Shown piece by piece: positions 7,396 through 47,977 of a stretch of DNA of 58,118 nucleotides. The notes under the pieces are model-generated. The model had not been told where the DNA came from and did no database searches. It worked only from the letters and a program-made list of their open reading frames with translations. The stretch's first letter is position 1. Each line of letters starts with the position of its first letter. A program made the position numbers and the translations under genes. Source of the DNA: a virus (lineage: Duplodnaviria; Caudoviricetes); the IMG/VR virus record IMGVR_UViG_3300023272_000003, positions 1 through 58,118 of that record, one strand, 5' to 3'.

Positions 7396-7428
7396 GCTAT
7401 TGACAATAGCTATCCGGTTTGGTATAAT
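7396..7428 (+). promoter_or_regulatory. consensus sigma70 promoter B with palindromic operator
   Basis: TTGACA-17-TATAAT; GCTATTG-A-CAATAGC centred on -35. Confidence 0.85.
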
Positions 7429-9460: not shown

Positions 9461-9688
9461 TCACCGTTTGCCGTCTGCGCGTCGTTGGCGCTGGTAGAGC
9501 GTGCGAGAGATCCGACAAGAAGCCTTGTGAGGCGGCACTCCGTTCCCACAGGTGCAGGGGATCTCTTCGACCGGCTTGACGCCACCAGTACCCTTCCATC
9601 CACCGAGCTTGCCATTTTCCCGCGATGCCGCCGCCTTCTTGTCTGTTTTTATGCTGCCCAGAGCGGCCCCTAATTCCTTCGGTGTCAA
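9461..9688 (-). CDS. small basic CCHC protein, paralog 3
   Basis: GSIKTDKKAAASRENGKLGG; CTC-x6-H-x3-C; TTG start after GGAGGAG. Confidence 0.75.
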   Translation of the reverse strand: MTPKELGAALGSIKTDKKAAASRENGKLGGWKGTGGVKPVEEIPCTCGNGVPPHKASCRISRTLYQRQRRADGKR

Positions 9689-9715
9689 ATGCTCCTCCTG
9701 CTTGTTCTTCAAATG

Positions 9716-9778
9716 ATTGTACTGCCTAACGATAGGGCACGTCAACAGTAGACACGGCCTAACGATAGGGGGTATAAT
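9716..9778. promoter_or_regulatory. divergent promoter pair with duplicated operator
   Basis: Minus TTGACG-18-TACAAT, plus TAGACA-18-TATAAT; GCCTAACGATAGGG in both spacers (9724-9737, 9757-9770). Confidence 0.8.
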
Positions 9779-9806
9779 ATGGTAACACATTGATAAGGAG
9801 CCGCCG

Positions 9807-11998: not shown

Positions 11999-12718
11999 AT
12001 GAGTATTGAGACGACAGAGCGCAAACCCCGGTTGCAGTGGGGTGATGGGCAGTATTCAGTCTACCAAGCCTCTGAGGTGCCTGCATACGAAATGACGGTC
12101 TTCTACCGGGCAGGCGAATGGCGGTTGGAGATCAGAGGAGCCGACAAGGGCAACTATCCTGATCGCACGTCGGCCCAGATCGCGGCAGAGTCCTGGCTGC
12201 GGGAGGAGATCCGGCGCGTGGGGGCGCTTTTGGGCGAAGGAGAGGAGGGTGAGAAGCCTCAGGCGTTCAAGGATGCTTTTAAGTTCAACATCCTTGTCAG
12301 AGGTGAGGCGCAGGCCTGCTTCCGTGCCTACAATGCCGAGGAGGATGAAGACGGGCAGAAAGTTTCCGGCGAAGAACTTCACGGCATCAGTGCAGATGAT
12401 CCTGACGACGAATTCAGCCAGTATTTCGATTGTGCGATGGAAGGGCTAGGTGTCTACCAAGGCTGGATGCGCTTCGAGTTTGCAGGCGAAAAACTCTGGA
12501 CTATCACAGAATATCAGGCGATGTCGGCACTCTCGGAGGAGGAATTGAAGGCTCTTGCACTCTTTACGCAGGGACAATGGTCGGACGGTATCGGCGAGGG
12601 ATTCGAGCAAAAGCGATGCCTCAACTTCAGCGGCGGCAGCTTCTCTGTTTCCCCTTATGCGGACAGGCAGAACCTTACCATTAGTCAGTGCGGAGTAACA
12701 TGGGAGATCACGCCATGA
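11999..12718 (+). CDS. hypothetical protein
   Basis: GGAGG RBS; C-terminal GQWSDGIGEGFEQ segment. Confidence 0.65.
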   Translation: MSIETTERKPRLQWGDGQYSVYQASEVPAYEMTVFYRAGEWRLEIRGADKGNYPDRTSAQIAAESWLREEIRRVGALLGEGEEGEKPQAFKDAFKFNILVRGEAQACFRAYNAEEDEDGQKVSGEELHGISADDPDDEFSQYFDCAMEGLGVYQGWMRFEFAGEKLWTITEYQAMSALSEEELKALALFTQGQWSDGIGEGFEQKRCLNFSGGSFSVSPYADRQNLTISQCGVTWEITP

Positions 12719-13068
12719 GCAACGAGACGACGGCCCCCACGCGGCCCACCGACCAGGAGATCAACGCCCTCTGCGCCACGCTGTGCGGCTACCAAGTATT
12801 TGCTGACGACGCGCCCATTATGTTACAGGCGATGTCCTGCATACGGCAGAGCGAATGCCCTGACTTCTGCGGCAGTCGGCAACCATCGGCTGAGTGGCTT
12901 CTGCCGATGGTTGCCGAAGACGACAGGGCAGAATTTGTGCGGTATTTGTGGCGATCAGTGGACGTGCGGGACGTGTGGGCCTGCATGACATCCACGCCGC
13001 GCCAGCAAGTAGAGGCAGTGCTGCGGACATTGGGCAAGTGGCCTGCGGAGTGGGAGGAGAGCAGATGA
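12715..13068 (+). CDS. hypothetical protein
   Basis: ATGA coupling on both sides. Confidence 0.65.
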   Translation: MSNETTAPTRPTDQEINALCATLCGYQVFADDAPIMLQAMSCIRQSECPDFCGSRQPSAEWLLPMVAEDDRAEFVRYLWRSVDVRDVWACMTSTPRQQVEAVLRTLGKWPAEWEESR

Positions 13069-13664
13069 GTGAGGAGAGAGCGCCGTACGGGGAGCAGGAG
13101 GCACGCAAGCATCAGGTCTTTATGATTTCAGGTGATGCATATTACGGGCGGGAGATTGAGTGTGCCTGCGGTCAAGATTTCAACGATGAAGGCAGATTCA
13201 ACACCCACCAGCAAGAAGAGATAGACGCCTTGATTCAGCAAGCCGAGCAGCGCGGGCGGGAGGCACTGCTTTCAGAGATGGTTGAGGCGCATTTGCAGAA
13301 GTCCGTCGATGTACCAGACGATGAAAGGGATTGGGTACAGCAGGTTATGCGCCTGCTGTACGTCAACTTTGACGGTTTTATTACTGCTGCCGTCAAAGGG
13401 CAAAAGGCGTCTTTTGAGCGCGGACGGGAGGCGGGGTTGCGGGAGGCGCTGGAGTCTGTACGGCAGTTAGGGATTGAGATGGAGGATCTCAGGAAGGTTT
13501 CCCCTTTCACCTCCGACGCATGGTATGAGTATAACGCCAAGGTGAACACTGCTAAGGGAGCATATCAGCGCATCACCGCCCTGCTGCCCGCCACACTGCC
13601 CGGTGCGGAGACGGAGGAGAGACGAAGTCTACGAAAAAATAGAGCAACTGAAGAAACTCATTGA
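13065..13664 (+). CDS. hypothetical protein
   Basis: ATGA coupling; GGAG RBS. Confidence 0.6.
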   Translation: MSEERAPYGEQEARKHQVFMISGDAYYGREIECACGQDFNDEGRFNTHQQEEIDALIQQAEQRGREALLSEMVEAHLQKSVDVPDDERDWVQQVMRLLYVNFDGFITAAVKGQKASFERGREAGLREALESVRQLGIEMEDLRKVSPFTSDAWYEYNAKVNTAKGAYQRITALLPATLPGAETEERRSLRKNRATEETH

Positions 13665-13878
13665 AAGCCTGAGCGGGAAGCCTTGGGCCGAAATCGAATT
13701 CCTGTACGTGAATCACTACATGGACGATCCGCGCTGGTCTTCGACGAGCATTTACCCGCCCGGCAAGATCCACACGGGTACGACGATCACGATAGAATGC
13801 ACGACCACCTACGCGGAAGGCGAGTTGCCTCCAATGCGAGATGACACTGCCCCTCACGGCACCGCAGGCAGCTCGTAG
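13603..13878 (+). CDS. hypothetical protein (start uncertain)
   Basis: Overlaps previous ORF and converges on endolysin. Confidence 0.4.
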   Translation: MRRRRRDEVYEKIEQLKKLIESLSGKPWAEIEFLYVNHYMDDPRWSSTSIYPPGKIHTGTTITIECTTTYAEGELPPMRDDTAPHGTAGSS

Positions 13879-14291
13879 CAGTCCGTGATGATGTTGCGAC
13901 GGTTCTGCCAGGGCTGAGAGTTGACGCCCTTGCCTGAGCTGCACTCGTAGGTGCGGCCCATGTAGACCAGGACCACATGCCCGATGCCGCCCTGTGGCCG
14001 CTTGAAGCCGATAAAGAGCCGGTGTGGATCGTGGGCGGCAAATTCCACATCGGAGAACTTCGCGAGTTTATGGAAGCCCTGCTGCGCGCACCATTCGTTC
14101 TGGGTGGCGCTCCCGTCCGGCAGGCGCAACCCGGCCCGATCGAGGCACCACCGGACCCAGCCAGAACAGTCTGCTGTCGTGAAAGTGCTGCTGTCCGCGC
14201 CGAGGGTGGGCTTGGAACCGTAGAGGTACCGCACCCGCCCGGCGGTGTGGTCGTAGCACGTTTTGAACATCGAGATAGACGCTTTAGACAT
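13854..14291 (-). CDS. endolysin, NlpC/P60-like cysteine peptidase
   Basis: Y.YG...DCSGWV catalytic Cys and GHV His; AAGGAG RBS before ATG 14291. Confidence 0.8.
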   Translation of the reverse strand: MSKASISMFKTCYDHTAGRVRYLYGSKPTLGADSSTFTTADCSGWVRWCLDRAGLRLPDGSATQNEWCAQQGFHKLAKFSDVEFAAHDPHRLFIGFKRPQGGIGHVVLVYMGRTYECSSGKGVNSQPWQNRRNIITDCYELPAVP

Positions 14292-14306
14292 CCGAGGAGG
14301 CTCCTT

Positions 14307-14477
14307 ATGCTTATACCAATTCCCCCAAAGGAAGAATGGCCGGAACATATTCGAGAGATCAATGAGCGGTGGGATCGTTGGATCGCCGCCGCCGATGCCC
14401 GCAAGGCGAGAGAGGCAGAAGAGGCAGCAAAAGCAGAAAGCGCTCCTACCCCTGCTCCGTCGGCGGATCGGGAATAG
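14307..14477 (+). CDS. small hypothetical protein interleaved in lysis region
   Basis: GAGGAGG RBS then ATG 14307. Confidence 0.55.
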   Translation: MLIPIPPKEEWPEHIREINERWDRWIAAADARKAREAEEAAKAESAPTPAPSADRE

Positions 14478-14718
14478 CCTGCTGTGCCGCCCTGCGCCGC
14501 GTGTCCTGCCGCTGCTGGTTCATCGTGTCGAGGTCAGGCGCAATGCGGCTCTGGAGGGCCTTGAGGCCAACGGACACGCCGGTAATCAGGGCGGCGTTCC
14601 GGCTGTGGGACTCGCTGTAGGCGGCAAACCCACCCAGAAGGCCGGAGATCAGGACATCCAGCGCGATGCGGAAGACGGCCTGCCGGCTGATGGGCGGGTC
14701 GGGTAGGCGTGAGTTCAA
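14446..14718 (-). CDS. putative holin
   Basis: Two hydrophobic segments, charged C-terminus, upstream of endolysin. Confidence 0.5.
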   Translation of the reverse strand: MNSRLPDPPISRQAVFRIALDVLISGLLGGFAAYSESHSRNAALITGVSVGLKALQSRIAPDLDTMNQQRQDTRRRAAQQAIPDPPTEQG

Positions 14719-14745
14719 GGGGCGAGGCTCCTAGAGAGGGTTGAT

Positions 14746-15144
14746 ATGATGTGTCAGACGATAGAACAGGCGACGCGCCGTCTTGCAGAGTGCGAAGAGT
14801 TGGAGCGCATTGCGGCACTGAACTTTGCAGAGACGCAACGCAGAACACAACAAGCGAGAGAGAATCTGCGCTTATTGCAGGCGAAGCATAAACTCGAACA
14901 GGCCAAGTCTGCCGGGCAGAGCGATCTACCTATTTGCCGTCAGTGCTTTCAGCATGCACTTATCAGCATCATAGTAGTCGAAATGGATAGACAAGGGCGC
15001 ATTGACCAAATGACCAAAGAACAGATGCTCAACGGTGAATGGTACTGCGCCGCTTGCAGATGGCGCGGACGGCCTCACCCGCGCTTGACCGAAGAGGCAG
15101 AGACACTTACGGCCCCACCGGAGGCGTCAGACTCGCCGCGCTGA
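14746..15144 (+). CDS. coiled-coil plus zinc-ribbon protein interleaved in lysis region
   Basis: CRQC...CAAC; GAGAGG RBS. Confidence 0.6.
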   Translation: MMCQTIEQATRRLAECEELERIAALNFAETQRRTQQARENLRLLQAKHKLEQAKSAGQSDLPICRQCFQHALISIIVVEMDRQGRIDQMTKEQMLNGEWYCAACRWRGRPHPRLTEEAETLTAPPEASDSPR

Positions 15145-15502
15145 TAATGATCGGCTCTGCGATGGCGCAGTTGACCTCCCGCGCTCCGGTGGCGGTTCCG
15201 GTCGGCTGAGACAGCAGGGCAGAGTTCAGGGCAGTATTGAGCGTGGAGAGCGCCGCCGCGAGGGTCGCGTTCGTGGCCGCCTCTGACTGCACGGCTGTGT
15301 TCGACAGCACCGCATCCAGCGCCAGACACATAGGCCGGAACTGTGCCGAGCCGCTTGGGCTGTCGTTCAGAATGTCGATTATGTTCGTGGGGGCGGTGTC
15401 GCGGCGGGAACGTTTCGACGCCGCAGCGGGGCGCAGGAGGGCAAGGAAGCCCACCAGGGAAGCGAACAGGGCAGAACGGCGTGTAAGGGTGTTGCGTGAC
15501 AA
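15107..15502 (-). CDS. putative Tat-exported protein
   Basis: LTRRSALF twin arginine, hydrophobic h-region, AAA cleavage site; AGGAG RBS. Confidence 0.5.
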   Translation of the reverse strand: MSRNTLTRRSALFASLVGFLALLRPAAASKRSRRDTAPTNIIDILNDSPSGSAQFRPMCLALDAVLSNTAVQSEAATNATLAAALSTLNTALNSALLSQPTGTATGAREVNCAIAEPIIISAASLTPPVGP

Positions 15503-15532
15503 TGCGTGTTTCTCCTATCGAAAGGGGTTGTG

Positions 15533-15805
15533 ATGAACTGGAAAAGGTTTAGCGACGAGATGCCGCCGCCGTGCGAAGTAAACGAAGTGCAGTGGCTGGT
15601 GACATACTCCGAAGAGTCGGGCTATCGGCTGTCGAAGCGCAAGGGCGATACCGTCAAGATTGGTGAGTATGACTACTTCCTCGATGACGAAGAGGATATT
15701 GCAGGCGTCTGGTGGTGCCTCCTGACCAATCCCGAAACAGGACAGCCCGCAATGGGAGGAGGCCGCCGAATCGATTGGCAAGTGCCAGAAGGAACCACCC
15801 CATGA
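15533..15805 (+). CDS. DUF551-like hypothetical protein
   Basis: MNWKRFSDEMP...WW..L..P pattern. Confidence 0.55.
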   Translation: MNWKRFSDEMPPPCEVNEVQWLVTYSEESGYRLSKRKGDTVKIGEYDYFLDDEEDIAGVWWCLLTNPETGQPAMGGGRRIDWQVPEGTTP

Positions 15806-16110
15806 GCAAAATGACGCCGGAAGAGCGGGCGCGCCGAATCGAGTTTGACTATGGCGTTTCGGAGGAAGACTTTGCGCGAGTCGCCGCCGCGATCCGTGAG
15901 GCCGTAGCGGAGGCGTATGAGACATGCGCTAATATTGCCCGGAAAGAAAGATGGGACTTTTGCGCCCAAAACATGACAACACGGGAAGGATCGATGTTCG
16001 AGCAGGCATGGGCAGAAGCCGCAAAATCTATAGAAGAGGATATTTGCGCCCTTCAAGACGCCCTCACCGCCGCCCCGTTACCTCCCGCACAGGACCGCCC
16101 AGAAGGCTGA
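15802..16110 (+). CDS. hypothetical protein
   Basis: ATGA coupling; AAGGA RBS. Confidence 0.6.
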   Translation: MSKMTPEERARRIEFDYGVSEEDFARVAAAIREAVAEAYETCANIARKERWDFCAQNMTTREGSMFEQAWAEAAKSIEEDICALQDALTAAPLPPAQDRPEG

Positions 16111-16246
16111 TAACGAGGTCTAGACGGTCATACAGGCCCCGGAGGACAAGCCCGCAGAGGATCGCCCCCAGGACAATACCCAACACCATGCGGGTTATCT
16201 CCAGGCTGAGTCGCTCCTGCTCCTCCGGTGGGGCAGGGGCGCTCAA
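16064..16246 (-). CDS. small membrane protein
   Basis: One TM segment; coupled to 16243..16737. Confidence 0.5.
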   Translation of the reverse strand: MSAPAPPEEQERLSLEITRMVLGIVLGAILCGLVLRGLYDRLDLVISLLGGPVREVTGRR

Positions 16247-16737
16247 TGGCCGACCTGCCGCGAGAACGCCAGCAGGACGCTCACCACGACGCCCAGGACC
16301 GCGAAGGCACTGACGGCGATACCCCAGAGGGAGGAGGCCCCCACGCCCCTTCCCTCTGTTTTGTCCATGCGGGACGAATGGGTCTGGAGAGTGTCCTTGA
16401 CGGCATCAAACTCTGATTTCGTGGCAAAGTTCTTCTCCCGGTCGTACATGGCAGCACGCCACTCGTTGTTCGCCTCCCGCCAACGCTCGATTTCTACAGC
16501 GCTCTTGTCAATGGCTTTCTCGCTCGACTTCAGGGCCGCCTCTACGGCCTTCTCTGCCGCCTGGAGCTGCGAGTGGTGCAGTACTGCCATGTCGGCAATC
16601 CGCTGCTCAAACAGGCGCTCAAGGGCCTCTATGCGGAGGATAAACTGTTTCTCAAGTTCCGCCACGACACGGCGGGTATAGACGTGTTCCGTCTGGGGAG
16701 TCCACCCCGCGAGGTGTTCCGGCAATTCATCTGGCAT
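16243..16737 (-). CDS. coiled-coil protein with C-terminal TM (lysis-cassette type)
   Basis: Long heptad region then LWGIAVSAFAVLGVVVSVLL. Confidence 0.7.
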   Translation of the reverse strand: MPDELPEHLAGWTPQTEHVYTRRVVAELEKQFILRIEALERLFEQRIADMAVLHHSQLQAAEKAVEAALKSSEKAIDKSAVEIERWREANNEWRAAMYDREKNFATKSEFDAVKDTLQTHSSRMDKTEGRGVGASSLWGIAVSAFAVLGVVVSVLLAFSRQVGH

Positions 16738-16900
16738 GGTGTTCCCCTACGTAAACAAACTGTTGAGGTCTGAGGTGCAACTCCAGATGGTCCCGTACGT
16801 TGAGCGTCTTTCCAAACCATGTGGCTGCCATCATCAGGCACAGAAGACATAGGAGAAAAAGGGCCAAGAAAAGACCATTGTAACTCTCTTTAGCGTTCAT
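16727..16900 (-). CDS. small membrane protein
   Basis: GLFLALFLLCLLCLMMAA; AGGAG RBS. Confidence 0.5.
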   Translation of the reverse strand: MNAKESYNGLFLALFLLCLLCLMMAATWFGKTLNVRDHLELHLRPQQFVYVGEHHAR

Positions 16901-17408
16901 CAGGTCTCCTATTACGCCGGAACTCATCCACGGCATTTTCCAGACGATCAGCGGTCTTGCTGAGACTATCGGCAGCGACTTTCTGCCTCGCGATTTCGAT
17001 CTGTGACTGTTCCACCGTCTGACCGAGCTCCTTGTTGCTCGTTATGGCGGCATCGACCTTTTTATCAATCCCATGCACGTACTGCGTGAGGTGGTCGATG
17101 CGGGCGTTCATCAGCGCCTGATAAGCGATGTTCTGCTCGTGCCACTGGGTACGCTCTGTCCGCTGGTCCCACTCGAATTTCGCGAAGGGGATCACCAACA
17201 CGGACAGAATCAGGGTAGCAACCTGCCACGTGTTGCCGCGAAACCACTTCTCGATAGAGCGATTGGCCTGCTGCAATGCCGTGAGGGGCCGACGCCTGCC
17301 GTGTGGGTGATCCTCTGGCTCTTCTTCTTCAGGCTCTTGCGGCTCTTCGTCATCCCGCTCCTCATCCGGTTCCGTCGGCTCCTCTTCGGCACGATGATGG
17401 TTGGTCAT
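16890..17408 (-). CDS. TM plus coiled-coil protein (holin/spanin-like)
   Basis: Acidic N-terminus, single TM, coiled coil. Confidence 0.65.
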   Translation of the reverse strand: MTNHHRAEEEPTEPDEERDDEEPQEPEEEEPEDHPHGRRRPLTALQQANRSIEKWFRGNTWQVATLILSVLVIPFAKFEWDQRTERTQWHEQNIAYQALMNARIDHLTQYVHGIDKKVDAAITSNKELGQTVEQSQIEIARQKVAADSLSKTADRLENAVDEFRRNRRPDER

Positions 17409-17647
17409 TTCGGCACCTGTCCTTTCTCGTCGCGGAGTAAGGGAATCAATGTCTCTAACTTGGCTTCAATGCGCCCTGATGCAATCAAGGTCGCCTGCTG
17501 GCTGCTCTGGATGTCCTTGCACATCTTTTCGGTGCGGTCGTTCTGGAGGCTGTTATTCAGGCACCAGAGGCAGAAAAACAACACAATGAGGATAACCTGC
17601 GAACGCGTGACAGGTTGCTTTCCCCAACTGGCGGAACCCTGTGTCAA
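17405..17647 (-). CDS. TM plus short coiled-coil protein
   Basis: VILIVLFFCLW; GGGAG RBS. Confidence 0.55.
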   Translation of the reverse strand: MTQGSASWGKQPVTRSQVILIVLFFCLWCLNNSLQNDRTEKMCKDIQSSQQATLIASGRIEAKLETLIPLLRDEKGQVPK

Positions 17648-17781
17648 AATACTTCTCCCGCCGTCGGGAGGAATCCGGGCTATCTGCCGCGAACACCCTG
17701 CCCGGACAGCTCGCTACTAACGATAGCTGGCCTGTCTGCCGGGGAAGGCGCTTTGATCGCTAACCCCGGCACTGAATCACC

Positions 17782-17810
17782 AGGGGCCGGGACAGATTGT
17801 CCCGGCCCCT
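17782..17810. terminator. 13-bp GC-rich hairpin
   Basis: AGGGGCCGGGACA-GAT-TGTCCCGGCCCCT. Confidence 0.6.
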
Positions 17811-17866
17811 CCCTTTGCGTCACGAAACTATTTTCAAAATTCCCTCCTGTTTGGCCTCATCTACTG

Positions 17867-17895
17867 TTGACATTATAGCGGCTATAGTGTACAAT
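17867..17895 (+). promoter_or_regulatory. consensus sigma70 promoter E with palindromic operator
   Basis: TTGACA-17-TACAAT; TATAGC-G-GCTATA in spacer. Confidence 0.85.
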
Positions 17896-17953
17896 AAGGG
17901 TGTAAGATCCAATAAGGAACTTACTCATCTACCCGACAGGAGAAGAGACGAAA

Positions 17954-18241
17954 ATGATTATCACCATCTGCGAATTCAAGGGCAACTTTCTCGGCAACAG
18001 CGACGGCGAGGGTATTGATCTGGAGAAGTCCATTGCGAACTATCAGACACAGGTAGAGGCCCGGATTGAGCGCATAGAACCGGGGACGTCTGTAGCGTGG
18101 GACTTCCGCAACGGTGAGGGCGATCCTGACCGATATTTTTCCGCCGAGGGTTTTGACGACGAAGACAGCATTCAGGGCGACGTCAACCATATCCGGGAGC
18201 AGGTTTTTGCGGAGGGCACCTTCTGGGCGTTCACGAACTAG
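17954..18241 (+). CDS. acidic hypothetical protein (moron cargo)
   Basis: AGGAG RBS after promoter E; opposite to late genes. Confidence 0.75.
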   Translation: MIITICEFKGNFLGNSDGEGIDLEKSIANYQTQVEARIERIEPGTSVAWDFRNGEGDPDRYFSAEGFDDEDSIQGDVNHIREQVFAEGTFWAFTN

Positions 18242-18244
18242 CCC

Positions 18245-18286
18245 AAAAGAAACAGGGCGCAGAGTGGTCGAATCACTCTGCGCCCT
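18245..18286 (-). terminator. intrinsic terminator
   Basis: AGGGCGCAGAGTG-7nt-CACTCTGCGCCCT with minus-strand GTTTCTTTT tail. Confidence 0.7.
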
Positions 18287-18367
18287 CCCCGACAGGGGTA
18301 AAGCATTGTACCACCACAGGCTTACCGGATGCCCGTTCCCGGCACATTTTTACCAGAGAGGCAAGGC

Positions 18368-18589
18368 ATGACGAACCCACAGACCCTAAGCGACGTTATG
18401 CGCGAACTCGCGCAACGCTCTACGCCCGAAACTCGCGCGGCCCGAAGTCAGAATGCCGCCACGGCACGTGCCGCCCGGAAGCCACCGAAGCCATGCACGT
18501 GCGGACAATCGCCCCACGTCAGCAGATGTCCTGTCTATTGGCGAGAGCGGCAGGCAGAGCGGCGGCGGAAGTCGGCTAAACCTTCCTAA
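18368..18589 (+). CDS. small basic CCHC protein, paralog 4
   Basis: RAARSQN...KPCTCGQSPHVSRCPVYWRE; GAGAGG RBS. Confidence 0.7.
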   Translation: MTNPQTLSDVMRELAQRSTPETRAARSQNAATARAARKPPKPCTCGQSPHVSRCPVYWRERQAERRRKSAKPS

Positions 18590-19001
18590 CGCGGATTTTC
18601 CGAAGGGGCGGAACCTTCCTGATCGGGATAGTACGCGTCCCCGGAGAACTCCCGGCACCCCACGCGCCGCCCTCCACGACCGCCACGGCAATGCCTGTAA
18701 CGCACTCCGTCAGGGTCGGGTCATAGTAGACATCCAGATGGATAGAGGCATCGATGTAGGCCTCATTTGCCGCCAGGGTGCTACTGAGGTCGTCCATGTA
18801 GGCAGCATCGAAAGTCCACTCTGCTCCCGTGCCGCCCATGTCGGGAGGCGCTTCGACGCTGAACGCTATCTCCATGCAGGCCGATCCGCCTCCACCGCCA
18901 TCCATTTCCGCACCCCACTCTGCTGGTTTGCTCACCGTCAATACCTCCGTCGGGTCGCCGAGTACGAATGTCTCCGCCCGTAGTGTGTCGTGGCCCCGCA
19001 T
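18576..19001 (-). CDS. hypothetical protein
   Basis: AAGGAG RBS. Confidence 0.55.
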   Translation of the reverse strand: MRGHDTLRAETFVLGDPTEVLTVSKPAEWGAEMDGGGGGSACMEIAFSVEAPPDMGGTGAEWTFDAAYMDDLSSTLAANEAYIDASIHLDVYYDPTLTECVTGIAVAVVEGGAWGAGSSPGTRTIPIRKVPPLRKIRVRKV

Positions 19002-20614: not shown

Positions 20615-22036
20615 CTATCCGACACCGAGAAGTGAAAGAGAAAAGTGAGTTGTAGGCACGAGCAAGGCTATCAGGTTCGCCCCGATTTTGGTACAGCCTG
20701 CGCTGCTGGGGTGGATACCGTCCGTCGTGTCCCCGGCGGCAGTATAGGTGCCTCCCGGTCCGGTCGAAATGTCGAACAGGTCCACGTTGGCCGGATTGGT
20801 GCAGGCCGCAATCGCCGCAGGGAGTACAGCATTGTAGTTGGGGCGCAGTGTAGAGTTCCCGCCGGTAAAGGGAAGGATCTGGCAAACCCCGATTCGCGTA
20901 GTGGGATAGGCCGCTATCAGGGCGTTTAAGCAGCTTGTATAATTGGCTTGGTAGGTCGCTGTAGAGACGCTTGTCGCGATGTCGTTCACGCCGATCATCA
21001 CAATCAGGCGCTTGAAATAGCTGGTTCCAAGGCCCATGTTGTGCGGAGGCGTCGGAGGCGAATTGGTGAGGTCGTACAGCAGGTTAGCGGTGGTCCAGCT
21101 GTTGTGGCCTGCGTTGACTACCCCGACGTTGTTGGTCTGACCGAACTTGGCAACAAATCCCTGTCGGCTGTCGCCTCCGGTTCCAATATCGCCCTGCGTG
21201 ATGGAATCGCCCCAAAACCCATATTGATCGCGCGCCGCATAGGTGGTCGTGGAGAGCGTGCCGCCCACAAGCATCAGATCCGTGAGCGTAAGCAGGTGCC
21301 CTCCTGCTGTGCCGTTTATGATATGGATTTCGTAATCATGTGTTCCTGATAGCCCCGTTCCGAACGCAAACAGGGATGTTCTGCCGTCGCTTGGAAAAGT
21401 CAAGGTGCTTCCTATGACGGTGGTCCCATCTTGGACCAAAACGCAGCTACCTGCCCCTCCATAAATCCACCCGTAAATAGCAGTCGCATTCGTGGTGAAC
21501 CGCAGCGACATATCTATATTGGTGCCGTCGTAGAATGTGTAGCCGATTCCACTGAACGGAACGAAGCCTCCCTCTCGCCTGGAGTATGTGGGGAATGTGC
21601 CTGAGTTGACGTTATAGATCGTCCCGAAATTGTCAGGTGCGCTCAATACCGGAGTGGTGCCGTCCGTAATCTGTAGCCCATAATCAGTGTCGAGGTAGAA
21701 GGTAGCTCCGGTTACTCCTTGGAGGGTGACATTTGTCCCAACTGGAATATTGGTGGCAATCGTTGTGACCAGCCATGCCCCTGCGCTGGAGAGCGTTGGG
21801 CGCGTCTGCAACACACCATTGAAAAGCACATCAATGGGTTGCGTGCCGGTATTCGAGTAGATTGTTACCTGAAGGGTGTTGGTGCCACTCCCGGCTGTGA
21901 CTTTCGTGTCGATGCGGCTTTTATCACCCTGCAAGAGCGCATAATTATGCACGCCTATGTTGCCCCATGCCCACTTGCCCAAGTATCGAATGGTGGCTCC
22001 CGTTACGTCTGATGTAGGCAATGGGAATGTGGTCAT
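20615..22036 (-). CDS. SGNH/GDSL hydrolase domain protein
   Basis: GDSITQG, IGVND and DGIHPS blocks. Confidence 0.85.
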   Translation of the reverse strand: MTTFPLPTSDVTGATIRYLGKWAWGNIGVHNYALLQGDKSRIDTKVTAGSGTNTLQVTIYSNTGTQPIDVLFNGVLQTRPTLSSAGAWLVTTIATNIPVGTNVTLQGVTGATFYLDTDYGLQITDGTTPVLSAPDNFGTIYNVNSGTFPTYSRREGGFVPFSGIGYTFYDGTNIDMSLRFTTNATAIYGWIYGGAGSCVLVQDGTTVIGSTLTFPSDGRTSLFAFGTGLSGTHDYEIHIINGTAGGHLLTLTDLMLVGGTLSTTTYAARDQYGFWGDSITQGDIGTGGDSRQGFVAKFGQTNNVGVVNAGHNSWTTANLLYDLTNSPPTPPHNMGLGTSYFKRLIVMIGVNDIATSVSTATYQANYTSCLNALIAAYPTTRIGVCQILPFTGGNSTLRPNYNAVLPAAIAACTNPANVDLFDISTGPGGTYTAAGDTTDGIHPSSAGCTKIGANLIALLVPTTHFSLSLLGVG

Positions 22037-22064
22037 TGAAAACCCTTTCGTTATCTGCTAGAAT
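22036..22064 (+). promoter_or_regulatory. promoter of antisense mini-moron
   Basis: TTGAAA-17-TAGAAT with TGn extension. Confidence 0.55.
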
Positions 22065-24651: not shown

Positions 24652-26112
24652 TTAAGGTGCTGTCAGTGGAACGCGTGTCCACGTCTCCGCATTCGGGTCA
24701 GAACTATACCAGACGGAGGGCGATGTCTCTCCTGCCGCCATGAAAACGAGCATCCAGAGCGCAGAACCGTTCTGGGGCATGATGAGATGGAACGAATCGT
24801 CTTTCGGCGTCAGGTCTTGGCCTGCATCGTTCTTGAACGTGTAGGCGGTGGAGAACTCTTGCTCTCCCGGTCCCTTCGAGACGGCTTTCAGTTGTGCTGG
24901 TGGTAGGGGTGCGCCCACGGAAGGCGCAGGCCCCTGGTAAAAGCAGGCGATAACAAGCGTGTGATCTATTGCCTGCCCCGGCGTCGGATGCGTGCCGCCG
25001 TCAAGGTCACTCAGCGCCATAGCGTTTTTGCCCCATGTGTTGCCGTCGTCATCGCTCTGATCTATCCATATCGAAGAGCCTCTCTCCCAGACAACCAGCG
25101 TCCTGCGATAGATAGGGTCATACACGCCTCTGGGCCGCTTGTCTGTGCCGCCCGTGGTGACTTTTGAACCTGCCTCAAAGCCGTAGAAAGGCCCGTTGTT
25201 GTCGGCCCGGCGGAAGAAGATGCAGCCCTCATCGGTGCCGCCGCTCCCCCGCTCGACCTGCATGTAAAAGCCCCACTGCTCCGCGAAATTCCAGGGAGAG
25301 TCGGACATCGCCGGGAACTCGTTCTGATTGCCCCCGCCCGCTGGTGGCTCTGGGGGAACGCCGCCTGCTGCCAGTTGCTTGATCGTGAACGTCGCAAGCG
25401 GTGGCGTAGAGGGTGGCTTGACCCCGTCGTACCAATCTCGGCTATATAGCCCATCGTAGACCCGCACGTGCCCGGTGCGCGGATAAGCATTCGGGTTCGC
25501 CGTCACCTCGAAATTCGAGAGGTAAGGGCTATGGACGTAGTAGATAAAACCCGGTATCGACGGGTGCGACGATGTGTCGTAGAGCGCACTCTCGTTCGCA
25601 ACCGTCGCAGAGCCTGGAATGACGTTGATCCAGTTGTCAGGAGTGTAGAAAAACCACCGCGCAGGCCCCCGGTTGTCATCGATCACCAGTTTATAGGAGG
25701 CTGGCTGTGCTGCCGCGCTCACCGTAACCTCATCCGGATCGAATGTATAGGTGGCAAACGAGTCCTGAACGATCTTGTAAAGCCCCCCGGATTCGCTGCC
25801 GCGAACAGCCAAGTTGGGTGGCCCCAGAAACTTCAATTCGATGTAGCCAGTACGCTGTGAACCTGTCGTATTCGAGGAAACGGTATAGAAAAATCCCTCA
25901 AATACCGTAGAAGGCAATTGAGGGTAGGCAGGATTACCACCGACGTTCTTCTTATCTCGACTGACGATTGTGATCCATGAGTCGAGCGAGGTCACTTCCC
26001 ACGGCGGAACATAGGAGGTATCGGAGGAGTATATCTCCACCTGGAAATACTCATTGACATGCGCCAGAGGATTGAATATCCTGTGAGCGTCTGGCGGGTA
26101 CGGGGTGGGCAT
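24652..26112 (-). CDS. tail protein with BACON-like domains and Asp-box
   Basis: SWITI..TV..N.TG..RTG.I twice; SDDDGNTW. Confidence 0.7.
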   Translation of the reverse strand: MPTPYPPDAHRIFNPLAHVNEYFQVEIYSSDTSYVPPWEVTSLDSWITIVSRDKKNVGGNPAYPQLPSTVFEGFFYTVSSNTTGSQRTGYIELKFLGPPNLAVRGSESGGLYKIVQDSFATYTFDPDEVTVSAAAQPASYKLVIDDNRGPARWFFYTPDNWINVIPGSATVANESALYDTSSHPSIPGFIYYVHSPYLSNFEVTANPNAYPRTGHVRVYDGLYSRDWYDGVKPPSTPPLATFTIKQLAAGGVPPEPPAGGGNQNEFPAMSDSPWNFAEQWGFYMQVERGSGGTDEGCIFFRRADNNGPFYGFEAGSKVTTGGTDKRPRGVYDPIYRRTLVVWERGSSIWIDQSDDDGNTWGKNAMALSDLDGGTHPTPGQAIDHTLVIACFYQGPAPSVGAPLPPAQLKAVSKGPGEQEFSTAYTFKNDAGQDLTPKDDSFHLIMPQNGSALWMLVFMAAGETSPSVWYSSDPNAETWTRVPLTAP

Positions 26113-29244: not shown

Positions 29245-29322
29245 GGGTTCCTGATCTCAAAAGAGGGATTCGGCTCTGCGCTCTCGAAAATGCCGGGTAT
29301 TCCGCCGCAAGGAGGCTCTTTC

Positions 29323-29805
29323 GTGACTCAGCCCTACAAAATATGCCCACAGTGCCAGGAACCTGCCGCCGTTGCCGCCACGCAGTGCGCCCGATGTGGC
29401 CGCATCTATCGCTCCACGTCACCACAGCAAACACAGGTTTTCGCTAACCCACCAGCACAAGCGCCCGCACCAGCACCCAGAGGCCTGTATTTCGGCGTAG
29501 GTGTCGGCGCGGGCTGCTTATTGGCAATCGGCCTGCTCTGCTTCTTTGTGTGGATGATTTTCTCTGGTGCGCGCTCTCAGGGCGGAACCCAAACCGCGCA
29601 ACTGGCGGCGAAGATGCAGGTTTATATCCCCTGTCGCCCCTATGAGTTTGAAGGCAAGTTCGGCAGGCCGGACAGCATGTCAAATACCAATCGGGACGGC
29701 ATAGAGTTTTACTTTTGGAACTATCGCTGCAAGGACGGCACGGTCACCGTTACGTTCAACAGCACCACCCAATACATAGAGCGAGTCAGCACCGAAGGGC
29801 CATGA
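29323..29805 (+). CDS. zinc-ribbon, single-TM membrane protein (moron)
   Basis: CPQC..CARC, TM, FG.PD...W.Y..V.F exported domain; AAGGAGG RBS; antisense to tail genes. Confidence 0.75.
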   Translation: MTQPYKICPQCQEPAAVAATQCARCGRIYRSTSPQQTQVFANPPAQAPAPAPRGLYFGVGVGAGCLLAIGLLCFFVWMIFSGARSQGGTQTAQLAAKMQVYIPCRPYEFEGKFGRPDSMSNTNRDGIEFYFWNYRCKDGTVTVTFNSTTQYIERVSTEGP

Positions 29806-47905: not shown

Positions 47906-47977
47906 TGCCGTGGGCGGGACTCGAACCCGCGTTGCTCAGTAAACTACCGAGTGTCCTGACCACTAGACGACCACAGT
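47906..47977 (-). tRNA. degenerate tRNA (Glu/Asp-type body, GTT at anticodon position)
   Basis: 72-nt cloverleaf with GTCTAGTGGTCAGGAC D-arm and GGGTTCGAGTCCC T-arm; A33/T37, A1-C72 mismatch, no encoded CCA. Confidence 0.65.

Follow-up and report, generated by a model that had tools for sequence, protein, structure and literature searches.

Predicted lysis genes interleaved with opposite-strand genes at the meeting point of the two arms of a leaf-litter phage genome

Results

The window analyzed in this work is the whole 58118-bp virus record IMGVR_UViG_3300023272_000003 (Duplodnaviria; Caudoviricetes), which carries direct terminal repeats, is rated 100% complete and comes from a single leaf-litter metagenome. 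A comparison with 50,697 phage records gave no nucleotide match to the genome, and the best match of its capsid protein, to Microbacterium phages, shows only 27% identity over 36% of the length of the protein. A self-trained codon model gives about 98 genes, and these form a plus-strand arm from 1.4 to 13.9 kb and a minus-strand arm that runs from 58 kb down to 13.85 kb. The subject of this report is the segment between 13.85 and 16.25 kb, which is exactly the meeting point of the two arms and in which a predicted endolysin gene and further small minus-strand genes alternate with plus-strand genes. This layout, which had been described in a sequence-only reading of the same DNA, is here called the zipper.

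The best-supported genes between 13854 and 16246 follow each other in the strand order -,+,-,+,-,+,+,-. Divergent starts face each other across three spacers of 15, 27 and 30 bp (14292-14306, 14719-14745 and 15503-15532), each of which holds two opposed ribosome-binding sites. In the shortest of them, CCGAGGAGGCTCCTT, these are two opposed Shine-Dalgarno (SD) sites, GAGGAGG serving the plus-strand start (-11.8 kcal/mol) and AAGGAG serving the minus-strand start (-8.5 kcal/mol). At each of the four tail-to-tail junctions the 3' ends overlap (25, 32, 38 and 47 nt); the 25-nt overlap is that of the 3' end of the lysin gene with the plus-strand open reading frame (ORF) ending at 13878, and the 47-nt overlap is that between 16064-16246 and 15802-16110. 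Elsewhere in the genome none of the five convergent junctions overlaps. Every coordinate given by the sequence-only reading was reproduced from the sequence and the ORF lists, and so were the strand alternation, the sizes of the divergent gaps, the paired ribosome-binding sites and the overlapping 3' ends which it had claimed.

Seven of the 18 strand switches of the genome lie inside these 2.4 kb. Outside the zipper there are 11 switches in 89 junctions, and at that rate seven switches in eight consecutive junctions would have a probability of about 3e-6 per position. From 12000 to 19000 the sequence shows no differences and no joints with respect to a 58117-nt contig produced by a second assembler, which argues against misassembly of the region; this contig is probably from the same sample, and hence does not represent independent data. 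Inverted or direct repeats flanking the plus-strand islands were not found, and their absence speaks against inversion by site-specific recombination as the origin of the layout. Single reversed ORFs are also present outside the zipper: one on the plus strand within the tail module (29290-29805; a 45-bp head-to-head and a 2-bp tail-to-tail gap) and one on the minus strand within the plus arm (9461-9790; a 16-bp head-to-head gap), the latter carrying within its first codons the TATAAT of a promoter for 9807.

The last gene of the minus arm (13854-14291, minus strand, ATG at 14291) encodes a protein of 145 amino acids (aa) that matches the Pfam model NLPC_P60 (PF00877) with 24.3 bits against a cut-off of 23, the model being covered in part. 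Cys42 (in the motif DCSGWVRW), His105 and Glu116 are invariant in six of six sequences, and we take them to be the catalytic residues by reference to the triad of the NlpC/P60 family. A profile of six lysin homologues matched CwlO, Tn916-type hydrolases and MepS only weakly (E 0.03-0.5). The AlphaFold2 (AF2) model of the protein (pLDDT 91.2, pTM 0.87) had 66 Foldseek matches in the PDB at E <= 0.001. Among the matches listed the best were RipB, Acd24020 and the phage endolysin Lys2972, all of them NlpC/P60-type hydrolases. By homology and predicted fold the 145-aa protein is thus an NlpC/P60 peptidoglycan hydrolase, and the earlier designation as an endolysin is upheld by the Pfam score, the invariant Cys, His and Glu and the NlpC/P60 fold of the model. 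It appears to be the only one of the eight zipper ORFs that homology identifies. The lysin has no signal peptide and therefore would need a membrane partner.

The closest minus-strand gene upstream of the lysin (14446-14718, TTG start) encodes a 90-aa protein with one clear transmembrane (TM) segment (residues 14-32) and a C-terminal tail that is charged, with many R, D, E and Q residues. It has no hit in Pfam, PHROG or NCBIfam and no similarity to the 76-aa protein of the relatives described below; in the Atlas its nearest neighbours are all viral, with holin families at 0.83, under the reliability line of that resource. These features make it a reasonable holin candidate: the earlier holin-like label is borne out by the TM segment, the charged tail and the gene position, but not by homology to any described holin family. 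The next minus-strand gene (15107-15502, TTG start) encodes a 131-aa ORFan with a putative signal peptide. Signals of the twin-arginine translocation (Tat) pathway have an S/T-R-R-x-F-L-K-like motif, a hydrophobic core and an AxA cleavage site, and by eye the N-terminus of this protein shows TRRSALF, a hydrophobic stretch and AAA-S (A-A-A/S). No TAT-signal model was matched in Pfam (E <= 0.1) or NCBIfam (E <= 1), and a homology search returned only the protein itself. The Tat label which it had been given is that of a candidate, with a twin-arginine-like signal visible by eye and no match to a TAT-signal model. The remaining minus-strand ORF (16064-16246) encodes 60 aa, or 41 aa from the ATG at 16189, with a single TM segment (hydropathy 2.36), and is the weakest call.

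On the plus strand the zipper contains four ORFs. The one at 14307-14477 (56 aa, acidic and soluble, no family) scores 0.175 per codon in the codon model described below and has the best SD site of the set; it is the least certain of the four. The ORF at 14746-15144 (132 aa, or 131 aa from the ATG at 14749) encodes a soluble ORFan with two CxxC pairs (codon score 18.8) and was found as the 131-aa protein P0009 in a library of 1.84 billion proteins; the sole further hit of the search, P0010, is an FG-GAP-type repeat protein that was matched five times over 30 residues and was rejected as spurious. The acidic soluble ORFan at 15533-15805 (90 aa, 0.213 per codon) and the acidic helical ORF at 15802-16110 (102 aa, 0.194 per codon) each retrieved only themselves in homology searches. 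The single-sequence AF2 model of the former, at pLDDT 56, is too low for a fold search; the start of the latter, which is the last plus-strand gene of the zipper, overlaps the preceding stop (ATGA). The contiguous plus arm ends just before the zipper with ORF 13603-13878 (0.226 per codon), which has no SD site at its GTG start and lies in the +1 frame of 13062-13664, the two frames joining at the A6 run 13634-13639. It is probably the +1-frame continuation of 13062-13664, and a frameshift or transcriptional slippage could make 13062-13878 a single gene, or an assembly indel could account for the change of frame; the second assembler gave the same sequence here.

The coding capacity of the eight ORFs was assessed with a codon model trained on 33 genes outside 13.5-16.3 kb, with 125 wrong-frame (shadow) ORFs as the null. 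Each of the eight scores best in its own frame and above all 125 shadow ORFs, with 0.036-0.213 per codon against a null maximum of 0.03. The plus-strand ORFs have 0.14-0.21 per codon, and the lowest values of the set belong to the minus-strand ORFs 14446, 15107 and 16064 (0.110, 0.066 and 0.036), the last of these being barely over the null maximum. All eight starts have an SD site, with anti-SD binding of -5.7 to -11.8 kcal/mol; for comparison, 59 confident genes have a median of -6.3, and of 764 random start triplets 15% bind at least as strongly as -6. The minus-strand starts have in common (T/A)AGGAG or TGGAG at a spacing of 9 nt. From 13.85 to 17.65 kb every minus-strand ORF except the lysin has a membrane or signal segment, and the plus-strand ORFs are all soluble and mostly acidic, one of them with the two CxxC pairs; such a split between the strands would not be expected of noise. 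Exact look-up showed that other pipelines had called the 145-aa lysin and the 90- and 131-aa proteins of the minus strand as well as the 131-, 90- and 102-aa proteins of the plus strand. ORFs 14307 (56 aa) and 16064 were not found as called proteins in public collections, whichever start was tried (four starts in the case of 16064). We are confident that the strand alternation is genuine for at least six of the eight ORFs.

The third-position G+C content (GC3) of the lysin gene (0.82) and of the 90-aa TM gene (0.85) is the highest of the genome (mean 0.64, sd 0.08). Neighbouring minus-strand genes have 0.77-0.85 and the interleaved plus-strand genes 0.47-0.65, a contrast that suggests different origins for the genes of the two strands. 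GC skew was considered as a mark of dominant plus-strand transcription and discarded; the coding strands of the three minus-strand genes are C-rich, and so are those of two tail genes.

Homologues of the lysin with 50-52% identity were found in viral contig L002, in metagenome contigs L086 to L088 and in L092, a Chthonomonadaceae (Armatimonadota) genome bin. Gene order was inspected at L002 (4996-6423), L086 (3600-4800) and L092 (5223-6420), with L087, L088, L089 and L093 left out. The order in all three is one-directional: tail fibre, a protein of about 92 aa with TM segment and coiled coil, a 76-aa TM protein, an HNH-like gene, and lysin. L086 lacks the HNH-like gene, which in L002 and L092 separates the TM gene from the lysin, and the junction before the lysin thus appears to be a site where genes come and go. 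In L086 and L092 host genes follow the lysin, and these loci therefore look like prophage ends. The codon model preferred an antisense ORF over two plus ORFs in L002; this ORF is broken in L092 and L086, which is why the L002 cassette is read as one-directional. A codon-position test of the 76-aa plus ORF against the antisense ORF in L002 and L092 gave no discrimination, because the third positions of the two coincide. The more distant lysin loci L003, L004 and L005 are also co-directional around the lysin. Since the lysin loci of the relatives are one-directional, the interleaving appears to be a derived peculiarity of this genome. The presence of lysin relatives in a Chthonomonadaceae bin and in soil metagenome contigs gives a hint of the host lineage.

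Relatives of the portal protein add one further comparison. The 78% relative is a 4.4-kb fragment, and the relatives at 42% were without the lysin. In one of these, L098, the late arm closes with small TM proteins and the last late-arm gene, and meets the other arm at a clean 68-bp convergent gap. Other proteins of the zipper region were found neither at 80 tail-fibre-domain loci nor at 4+6+2 lysin loci, and the viral contigs contained no relatives of 14746-15144, 16243-16737, 16890-17408 or 13062-13664.

A tool scan for promoter-like and terminator-like sites, run over 11.5-18.5 kb, had no hit of either kind inside 13854-16246. A relaxed sigma-70 matrix gave weak sites only, and the earlier observation that promoters and terminators are not seen inside the zipper is in agreement with both. 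Of sigma-70-like sites that reach the 99.5th percentile the zipper contains 10, where a uniform spread would give about 24, and no such site lies within 150 nt upstream of the plus-island starts 14307, 14746 and 15533. At a cut-off of 11 the stretch from 9.8 to 17.8 kb is free of matrix sites. Folding of the four convergent overlaps is no more stable than that of shuffled sequences (z 0.84, 0.12, -0.46 and 1.19), and Rfam and ARAGORN detected no RNA family or tRNA in the zipper region. The two strongest plus-strand hairpins are found 94-255 nt past the last plus-strand stop. The first, 16204-16247 (folded as 16198-16256), has -34.5 kcal/mol and z -3.8 on the plus strand, and -26.1 kcal/mol and z -1.5 on the minus strand; the second, 16325-16358 (folded as 16316-16372), is followed by UUUUGU and has -26.5 kcal/mol and z -4.4 on the plus strand, with none of 200 shuffles as good. 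The hairpins between 16204 and 16364 are a candidate for the 3' end of the plus-strand transcription unit.

The two arms differ in gene content and in promoters. An HTH_3 (Cro/CI-type) gene opens the plus arm, which also contains additional HTH and RHH genes, a replication-initiator-like gene and an HNH-type endonuclease; the minus arm encodes a helicase, an MT-A70 methylase, the terminase, the portal, the major head protein and the tail genes. Near-consensus sigma-70 sites are located at 2943, 7400 (perfect consensus), 8249 and 9749 in the plus arm, and at 1288 and 969 on the minus strand, at the start of the minus arm, while the relaxed matrix found no promoter of comparable score on the coding strand of the late arm. 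Gene content and promoter distribution agree, and fit the rightward early and leftward late transcription that had been proposed. TTGACA-17/18-TACAAT occurs four times (940-969, 1260-1288, 2943-2971 and 17867-17895) and the perfect TTGACA-17-TATAAT once (7400-7428), all of these TTGACA promoters standing at or near the starts of early-looking units. In the minus-strand tail module there are plus-strand sigma-70-like sites at 22036-22064 (14.9) and 26054-26082 (13.6) which, if active, would produce antisense RNA over tail genes.

Upstream of the zipper the same minus-strand cassette continues with three genes for small membrane or coiled-coil proteins (16243-16737, 16890-17408 and 17405-17647). 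Before them lies a control region (17655-18300) that separates the cassette from the tail operon, the end of which is marked by a strong minus-strand terminator (18286-18254, z -6.3). Within the region are a near-consensus plus-strand promoter, TTGACA-17-TACAAT (17867-17895), for an acidic 95-aa ORFan (17954-18241); a weak minus-strand promoter-like site facing it (17985-17957); a 13-bp GC hairpin (17783-17809); and, directly before the first cassette gene, a minus-strand terminator-like hairpin (17670-17655). The lysis cassette thus follows the tail terminator with a hairpin-containing leader of about 300 nt, and the layout recalls an antitermination-controlled leader with face-to-face promoters. 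On the other side of the zipper, inside coding ORF 12688-13068, there is a palindrome with a perfect 15-bp stem and no U-tract (12876-12917; -34.8 and -33.7 kcal/mol, z -5.5 and -6.6 on the two strands), which could be a stop or processing site for minus-strand transcripts leaving the lysin, or a protein-binding site. The sole tRNA found by ARAGORN, a tRNA-Asn (GTT), is located at 47906-47977 on the minus strand amid early or middle genes.

Discussion

The explanation which we propose for this locus is that the two arms interdigitate at 13.85-16.25 kb rather than stop at a shared terminator. The minus-strand genes would close the late arm as a lysis module in which the endolysin is preceded by small membrane or exported proteins, and the four plus-strand genes, all small soluble ORFans, would be an extension of the early arm with its wealth of sigma-70 promoters; the locus as a whole would consist of two interleaved noncontiguous operons. 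A promoter with its leader is too big for 15-30 bp and the shared 3' ends of 25-47 nt bar terminators, and the mRNAs should therefore extend into the neighbouring gene; we consider it likely that the transcripts of the two strands overlap substantially as antisense pairs. The plus-strand RNA would arise by read-through from the last of the early promoters, located no further along than 9.75 kb, and would run to the hairpins at 16.2-16.36 kb; the minus-strand RNA would start upstream of 17.65 kb and run past 13.85 kb, giving about 2.4-3 kb of complementarity between the two. Since the genes stand head to head, duplex RNA would mask the ribosome-binding sites of both strands. Polymerases would also collide, and the stronger side at any moment would win, resulting in reciprocal interference in which the lysis genes would be disfavoured during activity of the early arm and the plus-strand genes would be off once late transcription dominates.

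These steps differ in strength, the gene layout, codon scores, ribosome-binding sites, lysin identity and placing of promoter and hairpin signals being observed. For the explanation as a whole, the transcript extents, interference and lysis-timing effect of which we infer, the chances seem to us evenly balanced. A regulatory effect of the overlap, whichever its direction, is possible, if somewhat doubtful. The specific proposal that an early RNA, which at the same time codes for four small proteins, holds back lysis as an architectural lysis clock is unlikely in our view. On that proposal the RNA would be antisense to both the starts and the bodies of the genes for the endolysin, the holin candidate and the exported protein, and these genes would be expressed once early transcription had faded or been overrun by late transcription. 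Control could equally run from late to early, or reciprocally as in phage 80alpha.

Several observations weigh against the interdigitated-operon explanation. The seven ORFs other than the lysin have no hit in Pfam, PHROG or NCBIfam, and the four of them that were searched in large collections returned only themselves. ORFs 14307 and 16064 are weakly supported and are the least certain of the eight. The relaxed sigma-70 matrix may not represent the promoter types of the host or the phage, and weak minus-strand sites inside the zipper (14994-14968, score 10.4; 15605-15577, 8.7; 16056-16027, 8.1) could be the source of short separate transcripts. A terminator-like element on the plus strand (13335-13374, z -4.3), inside the last large plus-strand gene and upstream of the zipper, could act as a brake on early read-through into it. 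A search of sequencing runs found the phage in one DNA run and in no RNA run. Finally, the plus-strand island 17954-18241, outside the zipper, has a strong promoter of its own, so autonomous islands do occur in this genome.

The last point leads to an account in which the plus-strand genes or gene pairs are moron-like accessory genes, each acquired independently, with their own weak or non-sigma-70 promoters buried in their neighbours, and in which the narrow gaps and overlapping 3' ends reflect compaction at an insertion hot spot; the antisense overlap would then be short and would have no part in lysis timing. Morons are often ORFans, as are all four plus-strand ORFs, and the account also gains from the variability, among the relatives, of the stretch that separates the holin-like gene from the lysin (HNH-like gene in L002 and L092, not in L086), the near-consensus promoter of 17954-18241, the other single reversed genes (9461-9790 and 29290-29805) and the lower GC3 of the plus-strand genes (0.47-0.65, against 0.77-0.85 in neighbouring minus-strand genes). 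However, there is no promoter-like site before any of the three islands and no terminator after any but the last, and even buried promoters would give 5' leaders that overlap the start region of the neighbour across gaps of 15-30 bp. We regard this account as improbable, yet as one with a real claim to attention. A somewhat smaller chance is given to the converse logic, in which the layout serves to silence the plus-strand genes when the late operon fires rather than to hold back lysis. In 80alpha, according to the available text of the report, the antisense gene and the surrounding operon are mutually exclusive and the stronger promoter wins (PMC11087260), and in the present genome the minus-strand cassette stands after the whole late operon, behind a long leader whose terminator-like hairpins are compatible with strong antiterminated transcription. 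No reason has yet appeared why the plus-strand ORFs should need silencing; this logic is in any case compatible with interdigitated operons.

The remaining alternatives deny that part of the ORFs are genes. If some or all of the plus-strand ORFs were not, the minus-strand cassette would simply contain untranslated spacers of 154, 388 and 561 nt. None of these ORFs has homologues, 14307 is absent from public protein collections, and at 58% G+C spurious ORFs are common. Against this, their 0.14-0.21 per codon exceeds all 125 shadow ORFs, all four have SD sites at their starts, three of the four were called by independent pipelines, a chance open frame of 132 codons has a probability of about 1% per frame at this composition, and spacers of 388 and 561 nt would be unusual in a genome with a median same-strand gap of 13 nt; we hold this alternative to be quite unlikely. 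Less credible still is the notion that the lysin alone is reversed, with the minus-strand ORFs 14446, 15107 and 16064 spurious and the plus arm running on to 16.1 kb. In its favour these three score lowest in the codon model (0.110, 0.066 and 0.036) and lack homologues, but they encode typical hydrophobic segments (respectively an N-terminal TM segment, a twin-arginine-like signal with AxA, and a central TM segment), TAGGAG or TGGAG precedes all of their starts at a 9-nt spacing, and two of the three were called by external pipelines. Furthermore a lysin devoid of a signal needs a membrane partner, and small TM genes precede the lysin in the relatives.

Among known systems the closest to the proposed arrangement is the noncontiguous operon, in which genes of one direction are interrupted by genes of the opposite direction. 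It has been shown in S. aureus for menE-menC-MW1733-ytkD-MW1731 (PMC7154746), and in phage 80alpha the reversed gene ith-1 lies inside the cI operon, its expression being mutually exclusive with that of the operon and involved in life-cycle switching (PMC11087260). As far as the available text of these reports goes, both RNAs of such operons are coding as well as antisense, and reciprocal control is exerted by polymerase collision and RNase III (PMC7154746; PMC11087260). The zipper shares the nesting, with three plus-strand islands between minus-strand genes and vice versa. It differs from the published cases, where a single reversed gene or island carries a promoter of its own, in having three islands in 2.4 kb with no promoter visible; for the nested genes none was found by a scan restricted to sigma-70-like sites, other promoter types being possible. 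Moreover, both strands are interrupted here, all 3' ends overlap, and the module interrupted is that for lysis, as seen from gene layout alone.

The sequence-only reading had likened the zipper to an excludon. In the excludon of Listeria monocytogenes (Sesto et al., 2013), as summarised in the accessible part of PMC7154746, a long mRNA overlaps and represses its opposite neighbour. An mRNA with a dual coding and antisense role is the point of likeness. Excludons are defined by transcript maps and in their classical form involve one long 5' or 3' untranslated region (UTR) and one neighbour, not a multi-gene zipper, and the present zipper is known from gene anatomy. For the Pseudomonas phage PAK_P3 the available text describes early antisense RNA over late genes, which was proposed to keep them off (PMC4933390). 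Those RNAs, as described there, are non-coding, lie within genes, target structural genes and were detected by RNA-seq, whereas here they would be coding and directed at lysis genes, on the evidence of the layout.

An ordinary holin-endolysin cassette resembles the zipper in that the lysin comes last in the late arm after small membrane proteins, as in L002, L086 and L092. At the loci inspected, however, the cassette is one-directional and has a clean border with the other arm or with host genes, whereas here opposite-strand genes stand between every pair of cassette genes from 16.2 kb to the lysin. The likeness to morons lies in small ORFans between conserved phage genes, and 17954-18241 fits this description with its near-consensus promoter and downstream hairpin, while no promoter and terminator of their own were found for the plus-strand ORFs of the zipper by the tool scan, the relaxed matrix or folding. 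By analogy with these systems the principle of interdigitation would be one already known in phages, and it is the gene-by-gene form in a lysis module that seems to differ. A literature search, with supplements outside its scope, turned up no lysis cassette whose genes alternate one by one with genes of the opposite strand.

Should the overlap prove functional, the order of the genes would by itself tie early and lysis expression together in opposite senses, with no dedicated regulator. The noncontiguous-operon principle would then be extended from the immunity and lysogeny genes of staphylococcal phages to a lysis module and to a multi-gene zipper, and the zipper would represent a compact natural design for mutually exclusive sets of genes.

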